Virus record (IMG/VR): IMGVR_UViG_2684623171_000005
Source of the DNA: a virus
Taxonomy: Duplodnaviria; Heunggongvirae; Uroviricota; Caudoviricetes
Reading direction: 5' to 3' (one strand)
Length of the DNA stretch: 64,000 nucleotides
Made by a program: the position numbers. Below, one piece after another: positions 1 through 3,000 of the stretch (position 1 is its first letter; each line of letters begins with the position of its first letter).

Positions 1-3000
1 ATGACGGTCGCCCAGTGTCTCGACTACTGGTTCGACAACTACGTCTCTACAACTCTCAGAGAAAAGACCCAAGCACTTTACCGATCAACGGTTATGAAGC
101 GCATGCATGACGCCTTCCCTAATCGTCCGGCATCTTCTATCACGGTTAAGCAATGGGTTGACCTGCTTACCGAAGAAGAAAAAGATAATCCACGCCGAGC
201 AAGGCAGGTGCTAAGTCAACTAAGATCAGCAATTAGTTGGTGCATGCGGCGTCAGTTGATAGATAGTTGCGCAATTATGAGCATCCAACCAAGGGACTTC
301 GGCTCCCGCGCTGAGGTAGGGGATCGGGTACTGTCGTATCACGAACTGGCTAAGATCTGGCTTGCTATTGAAAGAAGCCGTGCGTCTACGTCAAATAAGC
401 TCCTTCATCAGATGCTTATGCTGTGGGGGGCGAGGCTCTCAGAGCTTAGGCTGGCAACAAAGACAGAATTTGACCTGCTGGACAACGTATGGACCGTACC
501 GAAAGAGCATAGCAAGATGGGTAATGTTATCCGCCGTCCAATCTTCGATCAAATTAAGCCTTTTCTCGAAAAGGCCATGACAACGTACAATGATGTTCTT
601 TTCCCTGGAGAAGACATAAACAAACCGATCAGCATCGCTGCAGCTAACCGATTCGTAAATAGAATAAGGGGAGGGATGGATCTAGGTTACTGGCGAACAC
701 ATGATTTCAGAAGAACGCTTGTTACACGTCTGTCCGAGATGAATGTCGAGCCTCATGTTACTGAGCGAATGCTCGGTCATGAACTTGGCGGGATAATGTC
801 CGTATACAATAAACACGACTGGATAGAGGCTCAGCGCAAAGCGTATGAGCTTCACGCTGATAAATTGTTCTGGCACATCAGGAGCATTTCTGATTAACGC
901 CACCGTTAAGAATCCACCCTTCAACAGCTTCACGAAGGTATGATTTGGGGTGGGTTCTGACTGGCTTCGGAAATCCGTGCCGTTTGGTATAGTTCCAGAT
1001 TGTCTGACGTGATGAAACACCGAGCTTGTTCATCACTTCTTTCTCAGGAATCAGGCTGGTATCGGTCATCTTAATTCTCCAGGCAAAAAGAAACCGCCAT
1101 ATAGCGGCTCTATCAGATATGAACAGGCCTCATCGAGTGTGAGGCGTTAGTCCTTGCGTAGCTCGCTGATTCTTCTGTAAGTCTCTGGTGCTTTGTTTCC
1201 GTGTATCTTCATTTCAGACTTCAACAGAGCAACGAGGGAATCCCATTCGTTGAGGATTCCTTTGAATGCCGGAACGCGCTTTGCAACCTTGTCGAATGAA
1301 TCTCTGATTTCTGGAATCTGCTCAACAAGTGCAACGCATCGTCTGAAATCGGCTGCGTCATGTGGAGCACCGAAGCCATGACCATAGATATTCTTTTTCA
1401 GGCCACATGCGATTGAGGCAAGAGTTGCGCTACTGATGCCGACATCGCCAGTTGATTGCCATTTCAAAACCTTCATAGCCAAATCTGACATTTCTTGTCT
1501 CCATAAAACAAAACTCGCCGTAGCGAGTTCAGATAAAAGAAATCCCCGCGAGTGCGAGGATTGTTAGTTGCGCTCTGCTGCTGCCTTAGCCATTACCATA
1601 TCCACACAATTTCACCAGACATGATTCTCGCAATCACTATCATCACCAAAGTGATAATCACAACTTTAACTGGCGGCATCATTCACCATCCTGCTGCGGT
1701 GCTGCTGGATATACTTTTCTCATCCAATGCGTGGCGTCATGAATAACGAACTGATATTCATCATCAGTAAACATCGAGCCATCCCACTGTAGCCCGTCAA
1801 GAACACCTCTGGATGGAGAGAATACCCAGATATCGAAATCGTATTTCTCCGGCATTCGCTCACTACAGCTTATCCAACCATCCGGAGTTACCGGAGAGTT
1901 GCCAGCCTTGCGCATGGCAATCTCCATGATTTCAACCATATCTCCTGGTGGAATTTTACAATGCTGACCAATATGCCTCTGCTGCCTGGCATATTCGAGG
2001 ATGTGCTCCAGCTTGATACGATTAATCATGATTTATCTCCCTGAAGCATGGCTTCGCGGCAGTCGTTCCAGCCTTCAGCATAATCACTATACGCAAGAGG
2101 CCAACCGTTTCTGTATTCACGCGGCAACTTATCAGGCACTACCAGCGCTGGCGGCGCGGAGAATAGTGGTTTAGGTGATATTTCCGCACGTTTTGCGTAT
2201 GCTTCAACTGTGTCAGGGTTAAACAGGATTATGTTTTCACCGCATTCTCACGCTATCGGTTCTGCTTCCAGCGATGCCAGTGCAATTTCATAAGCACGGC
2301 GCTCAATATTGTCTCGAACGTCCAAGCTGCCTATGCGCTCTTTGATTTCTTTAATCAGTTCTTTGTCGGTAATAGTGGTCATGCCGCGTTTCCTTCTTTC
2401 TTATTAACAATTACACCGTCATATATTTCATTAAGGTGCCCTCTCAACTCCATGCGCCTTAATGCAGACAACATGTAATCGCATTCAACCTGCTTATTTC
2501 CAGTAAATGGCTTATCGTCAGGATTACCCCAACAGCAATTACCCTTGGGCCACCCATGTACTTTCCGTACTCTTCCGTTAACAACGTGAAGTAATCCCCA
2601 GCCAGGTGGTAAATCCTCAATTGAAATAATTCCCGGCTCACTAATAAAGAATCGCCAGTCGCCCATTCCAAGAGACGGATTTTTACGAAAACGCTTTTTT
2701 CTATCTGCCAACAAGTCAGCACGAGAACATTTCGCCTCTATCAGGCATGATGCTGAATTTCTGAATCCCATAGCATCTGGCTGTTCTCCGGTACTGGTTA
2801 CAGCTATAAAGCGGTCATGAAAACAAACCTTGAAACCGTTGCGCTTAAGGAACTTGTACGCAATCTGACAGAGTTCGCGGTGTGTTAACGCCATATCACT
2901 CTCCTTTGATGCGAATGCCAGCAAGCCAGTTTCTTATGCCGATATATTCAGCGTTCCTGAAACCGCTTTTTACATATATAAATGGCAAGCGAAGATTGTG

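Follow-up and report, generated by a model that had tools for sequence, protein, structure and literature searches.

A recent nonsense mutation probably inactivates a phrog_5117 gene in the exo-xis region of a Stx2 prophage of Escherichia coli O157:H7

We analyzed a 64,000-nucleotide stretch of viral DNA (IMG/VR record IMGVR_UViG_2684623171_000005; hereafter the window), which is a lambdoid Stx2 prophage of E. coli O157:H7, and focused on a minus-strand gene of the exo-xis region whose open reading frame (ORF; 2382..2026) is interrupted by an in-frame TGA. The most probable explanation (about 0.92) is a recent nonsense mutation, in which a G to A change (C to T on the plus strand) at window position 2248 converted the Trp45 codon TGG into TGA and inactivated a dispensable accessory gene. 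The interrupted gene is thus an ordinary pseudogene, and it is already annotated as such in GenBank and RefSeq.

A one-base difference from intact orthologues

Translation of 2382..2026 on the minus strand gives MTTITDKELIKEIKERIGSLDVRDNIERRAYEIALASLEAEPIA*ECGENIILFNPDTVEAYAKRAEISPKPLFSAPPALVVPDKLPREYRNGWPLAYSDYAEGWNDCREAMLQGDKS* in one frame, in which 44 sense codons are followed by TGA (2250..2248), a further 73 sense codons, and the closing TGA (2028..2026). The sequence-only reading of this stretch had described an in-frame TGA at 2248-2250 within a 118-codon ORF, 73 further codons in the same frame, and translational coupling to the neighboring genes at both ends; all of this was borne out. 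The ATG (2382..2380) forms an ATGA overlap with the upstream gene's stop (2381..2379), and the terminal TGA of the interrupted ORF forms another with the ATG (2029..2027) of the downstream DUF551 gene. The parts of the interrupted gene are as follows.

2026..2382, minus strand: interrupted gene (118 codon positions, then the terminal stop); pseudogene allele of a 118-aa phrog_5117 protein
2251..2382, minus strand: 44 codons still translated, giving the N-terminal helical-hairpin module with the conserved hinge IALASLEAEPIA at its end
2248..2250, minus strand: premature TGA at codon 45; base 2248 is A here and G in the intact orthologues (TGG, Trp45, to TGA)
2029..2247, minus strand: 73 codons stranded past the stop; middle module and C-terminal GWNDCREAML helix
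2391..2395, minus strand: Shine-Dalgarno sequence AAGGA, 8 nt before the ATG at 2382, read from the sequence
2037..2041, minus strand: Shine-Dalgarno sequence GGGAG, 7 nt before the ATG at 2029 of the DUF551 gene, read from the sequence

Stop-to-stop intervals of at least 73 codons account for ca. 3.3% of those in shuffled window sequence and 6.6% of those in the real window. Because such intervals are not rare by chance, the 73-codon open stretch alone is a weak argument for a formerly continuous gene. The comparative evidence is decisive instead: the protein with Trp45 restored matches phrog_5117, a family of unknown function, from end to end (residues 1-117 of 118 against profile positions 1-125 of 125, E = 5.6e-58), and intact orthologues are one base away.

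Intact 118-aa orthologues were found in VT1-Sakai (H0067, BAB19623.1), in the Stx1 prophage CP-933V of EDL933 (WP_000207903.1, the same protein as H0067), and in the sister Stx2 phage WGPS8 (BAT32675.1). Like the interrupted gene, these three lie between Ea22-like and DUF551 genes and overlap the downstream DUF551 gene as ATGA; unlike it, they keep TGG at codon 45 (Trp) and code for all 118 aa. In a base-by-base comparison with the three, the sole difference was at nucleotide 135 of the ORF (window 2248), which is G in the orthologues and A in the window (356 of 357 identical). This base was also the only difference between WGPS8 and the window over 1.4 kb (window 3000..1601). A prophage of O111:H8, in which another N-terminal module is joined to an identical remainder, reads ...EPIAWECGEN... 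with TGG at this codon, and the same sense codon was present in 30 IMG/VR contigs. The orthologues therefore carry a Trp codon at the position of the stop, as the sequence-only reading had proposed to check. Of the two explanations which that reading had offered, a recent nonsense mutation and stop-codon readthrough, these comparisons support the former: the homologous position holds a sense codon, the stop is one substitution away, the rest is collinear with the intact gene, and the stranded part has no independent translation start.

The argument that the mutation is recent rests on the locally identical 1.4-kb block, because the two phages are not clonal overall: WGPS8 is 99.2% identical to the window over the first 13.7 kb and mosaic beyond. 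As a separate observation, ca. 5 kb of the window after the replication genes has no match in WGPS8 (differences within ca. 13,669-18,740 and ca. 21,700-24,500), the nin/Q region is just 90-96% identical, and the late region is ca. 96.7% identical.

The same TGA allele has been annotated in several ways. Phage 2851 (FM180578) lists two coding sequences (CDSs), EP2851_05 and EP2851_04, as "hypothetical protein, N-terminal half" and "C-terminal half", respectively. AP012538 (Stx2c_WGPS4_05) and AP012539 label the gene "(pseudogene)", and the RefSeq Prokaryotic Genome Annotation Pipeline marks it "internal stop" in NZ_CP028647 (C9E54_RS28455). EP2851_05/EP2851_04, Stx2c_WGPS4_05, and C9E54_RS28455 are identical to the window gene including the TGA; phage 2851 differs from the window in an extra 5-bp deletion in the upstream neighbor. 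A literature search on phage 2851 returned nothing on the interrupted ORF.

The two CDSs of FM180578 could be taken to mean that the window holds two true genes, one for a 44-aa protein and another for an independently started C-terminal protein, and the 44-aa N-terminal module is indeed portable, being found fused to other domains. We nevertheless consider this highly unlikely. EP2851_04 (phage 2851 locus L001, 2735-2935) begins at CTG, Leu53 of the intact protein, and has no start signal; it is an annotation convenience and not a gene. No in-frame ATG, GTG, or TTG occurs in the stranded part ahead of GTG 2139, which would give only 37 aa and has no Shine-Dalgarno sequence. A stand-alone protein of ca. 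44 aa was absent from the best 120 of the 1,644 homologues obtained from a large protein collection, the shortest of these being 82 aa. Orthologues split into two separate conserved genes, which would have told against the sequence-only reading, were not seen; the 30 TGG-bearing IMG/VR contigs and 42 aligned proteins are all continuous ORFs.

Distribution of the TGA and TGG alleles

In IMG/VR, the 30-mer around the codon, GAACCGATAGCGTGRGAATGCGGTGAAAAC, occurred 34 times, 30 times with TGG and four times with TGA. The 30 TGG contigs contain at least four N-terminal and at least four C-terminal module types, while all four TGA contigs share the module combination of the window. The seemingly shortened N-termini ("MARVEGELF...") in some IMG/VR contigs belong to genes that actually start with GTG.

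We also searched 5,426 complete E. coli genomes for exact 61-mers of each allele. The TGA 61-mer was found in 109 records and the TGG 61-mer in 367 records; in the TGG search, the band of one to three mismatches held just 16 records, which means that in at least 93 of the 109 TGA records the same replicon contains a TGG copy as well. In strain 130, for example, the intact gene for WP_000207903.1 is located at 1,777,044-1,777,400 and the TGA copy flagged "internal stop" at 1,961,349-1,961,705 in another prophage. Wherever a serotype was named among the listed TGA matches, it was O157 or O157:H7; the remaining listed matches gave none. The 511 nt spanning the ORF are 100% identical to those of Stx2 phages 1717, 2851, Stx2a_F349, WGPS4, and WGPS6 and of many E. 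coli O157:H7 chromosomes. The stop allele thus has a narrow and shallow distribution, with 109 records and a single module combination in IMG/VR.

Since only one base separates the window from its close relatives, a sequencing or assembly error with TGG as the true codon might be considered. Such an error is exceedingly unlikely, because the same TGA recurs in four IMG/VR contigs, in 109 E. coli records whose complete genomes were assembled independently of one another, and in five phages that were each sequenced separately (1717, 2851, F349, WGPS4, and WGPS6).

Several points weigh against a disabling mutation. No further decay, either indels or extra stops, was found downstream of the TGA in any carrier, and the sole substitution in a TGA carrier (locus L030) was T to C at window 2215, a synonymous change in a Pro codon. 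Relaxed selection on the stranded 73 codons cannot be demonstrated from these sequences, because the 222 nt past the stop are at least 99% identical in 370 E. coli records and allow no selection test. In addition, the allele persists in 109 records and its phages are reported to be inducible, which implies that it is not strongly deleterious; neutrality is compatible with this but unproven. The undecayed downstream frame is, however, equally what a very young mutation predicts.

Expected translation of the TGA allele

We propose that a spontaneous G:C to A:T transition created UGA at codon 45, where release factor 2 (RF2) would terminate translation and release a 44-residue helical-hairpin peptide. 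In an AlphaFold2 model of the restored protein (mean predicted local distance difference test score, 78.6), helices at residues 6-19 and 25-39 are followed by a strand at 42-46 that holds Trp45, and the C-terminal side is composed of a helix (56-66), a strand (71-74), and a helix (97-114). As Trp45 lies in the strand at 42-46, termination at codon 45 is predicted to leave the helical hairpin only, and the released peptide would lack the Trp45 strand, the middle β-α-β module, and the C-terminal helix. The DUF551 gene would still be translated via its own GGGAG sequence, although terminating ribosomes would no longer reach the ATGA junction, and N-antiterminated transcription from pL should blunt Rho polarity over the ca. 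220 untranslated bases. Such a lesion would be tolerated because phage growth does not require the exo-xis genes and because, in most carrier genomes, another prophage carries an intact copy.

Of the stop codons of E. coli, UGA is the leakiest and is misread by Trp-tRNA(Trp). The RF2 of K-12 is an unusually weak variant, and leakage at UGA is therefore probably lower in O157:H7. In a K-12 UGA reporter, readthrough was ca. 2% at 37 °C and ca. 4% at 25 °C, with Trp-tRNA(Trp) competing with RF2 (PMC10570021). If Trp-tRNA(Trp) decoded the UGA as a near-cognate codon, a protein with precisely the wild-type sequence would again be made, at a level of no more than a few per cent. Because the inserted residue is coincidentally the ancestral one, the TGA allele probably behaves as a severe hypomorph and not as a strict null. 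Unprogrammed leakiness of this kind is possible at TGA 2248-2250; it corresponds to the background UGA suppression of E. coli in the codon, in the inserted residue, and in the restoration of the wild type by leak-through. Background suppression is, however, generic to every UGA and not a feature of this locus, and no enhancing context was found at the window TGA.

The sequence-only reading had also allowed for a site of stop-codon readthrough. If it were programmed or selected, the TGA would be kept because it reduces how much full-length protein is made, some still being produced through Trp-tRNA(Trp). The leakiness of UGA, its misreading as the ancestral Trp, the perfectly intact downstream frame, and the presence of the TGA allele in 109 records are in line with this. 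The stop, however, is not conserved: every other family member that was examined carries a sense codon at this position, usually one for Trp, and the TGA is confined to a single near-clonal haplotype. The 113 nt around and after the stop fold unremarkably (minimum free energy z = -1.78; 10 of 200 shuffles were equally good), no Rfam family matched the surrounding region, and the downstream RNA cannot have evolved to stimulate readthrough because the same sequence is present in the TGG alleles. The intact frame is explained by the youth of the allele, the same 222 nt being invariant across serotypes. Readthrough as a programmed feature thus found no support, and we regard it as quite improbable. 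A related proposal, that the TGA is a selected leaky dosage variant giving a few per cent of the full-length protein together with an excess of the free 44-aa hairpin as a competitor, is very improbable; if true, the altered balance could tune the lysis-lysogeny decision or induction, since the hairpin module is common to many exo-xis proteins.

E. coli possesses the machinery for selenocysteine incorporation, which could in principle decode the UGA. The orthologues, however, carry Trp and not Cys or selenocysteine at codon 45, the local fold is not significant, and an Rfam scan of 1500-3000 (E ≤ 1), which included selenocysteine insertion sequence (SECIS) elements, gave no match. The probability of selenocysteine decoding is therefore close to negligible.

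A recent nonsense mutation at codon 45 would be one more case of mutational decay among dispensable and redundant accessory genes in the multi-prophage genome of O157:H7. The change from TGG to TGA is the only nonsense change whose effect on the protein is exactly reversed by background misreading, and alleles of this type are therefore not necessarily complete nulls. The G/A polymorphism at codon 45 could mark the lineage of a subset of Stx2 phages. Phages WGPS4 and WGPS8 are identical over this 1.4 kb save for one base; should the phrog_5117 protein prove to take part in the choice of Stx phages between lysis and lysogeny, natural TGA/TGG phage pairs would be near-isogenic material over this segment.

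Protein family and surrounding genes

The 1,644 homologues of the restored protein came from Escherichia and Salmonella prophages. A Pfam scan of this protein gave no family, and a Foldseek search of the PDB with the AlphaFold2 model returned no match with E below 0.9. Alignment of the 42 proteins revealed a three-module mosaic of a variable N-terminal helical hairpin, a middle module, and a variable C-terminal module. The first hinge, IALASLEAEP(I/V)A, is nearly invariant and is followed by W in most sequences, and the second hinge, L(F/Y)xAPPxxVVP, likewise nearly invariant, joins the middle and C-terminal modules. The C-terminal module takes the form of a ...GWNxCRxAML helix in some proteins and of a DUF551 domain in others. 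One and the same 30-nt hinge sequence was joined to at least four N-terminal and at least four C-terminal module types, DUF551 domains included, and the two hinges look like homologous-recombination joints for domain shuffling. HK022 gp36 (AUM59812.1) and YfdT of the cryptic prophage CPS-53 share the N-terminal module of the window protein (MTTFTDKELIKEIKERI.SLDVRD.IERRAYEIAL.SLE), but they have other middle and C-terminal modules and are uninterrupted; they are mosaic relatives and not orthologues.

Among the family members P0016, P0039, P0075, P0086, P0093, P0095, and P0111 (91-206 aa), some entries are named "Valyl-tRNA synthetase" or "dTDP-6-deoxy-L-hexose 3-O-methyltransferase"; given these lengths, the enzyme names are almost certainly propagated misannotations. 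The homologue in IMGVR_UViG_2522572021_000008 has an extra A in an A-run near its 5' end that brings stops into the frame, which reflects either an independent inactivation or a homopolymer sequencing error.

The segment belongs to the variable distal part of exo-xis in a lambdoid Stx2 prophage: the interrupted gene lies downstream of ea22, with exo on one side and xis/int on the other, on the strand transcribed from pL. Transcription of the exo-xis region from pL is early, and deletion of this region leaves replication uninhibited (PMC10834534). The gene order around the interrupted gene is as follows.

4795-5475, minus strand: exo, from the gene order
Between exo and the Ead/Ea22-like gene, minus strand: small ORFs, then a gene for a zinc-finger protein, from the gene order
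2896-3843, minus strand: Ead/Ea22-like protein (Pfam E = 3.3e-41)
2379..2894, minus strand: upstream neighbor, 171 aa, ATG at 2894, phrog_9263/phrog_631, unknown function; intact here
1679..2029, minus strand: downstream neighbor, 116-aa DUF551 protein, with an ATG that overlaps the terminal TGA of the interrupted gene
1147-1491, minus strand: further ORF after the DUF551 gene
878-1069, minus strand: AlpA/Xis-like ORF, from the gene order
1-897, plus strand: int, from the gene order

A scan of the coding strand from the Ea22-like gene (2896-3843) to the end of the DUF551 gene detected no promoter-like or terminator-like site, and no internal promoter from which a separate downstream gene could be expressed. 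Between the DUF551 gene and the ORF at 1147-1491, two successive terminator-like hairpins with T-runs (1562-1541 and 1530-1511, minus strand) were observed, which are possible attenuation points of the leftward transcript.

The 171-aa gene upstream (2379-2894) is intact in the window and has been frameshifted independently in sister phages. Phage 2851 and three IMG/VR contigs have lost 5 bp (window 2488-2492, CAGGT), and the Stx1 phages VT1-Sakai and EDL933 have lost 2 bp (window 2736-2737); RefSeq flags this gene as "frameshifted" in strain 130. To judge from the sequences, these independent frameshifts point to relaxed selection on the segment generally. All four combinations of TGA or TGG with the presence or absence of the 5-bp deletion were seen (loci L001, L006, L009, L012, L025, and L030), and the two linked polymorphisms, 240 bp apart (2248 and 2488-2492), therefore fail the four-gamete test. 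This failure implies either that co-resident lambdoid prophages have exchanged sequence by gene conversion or recombination, or that slippage has recurred.

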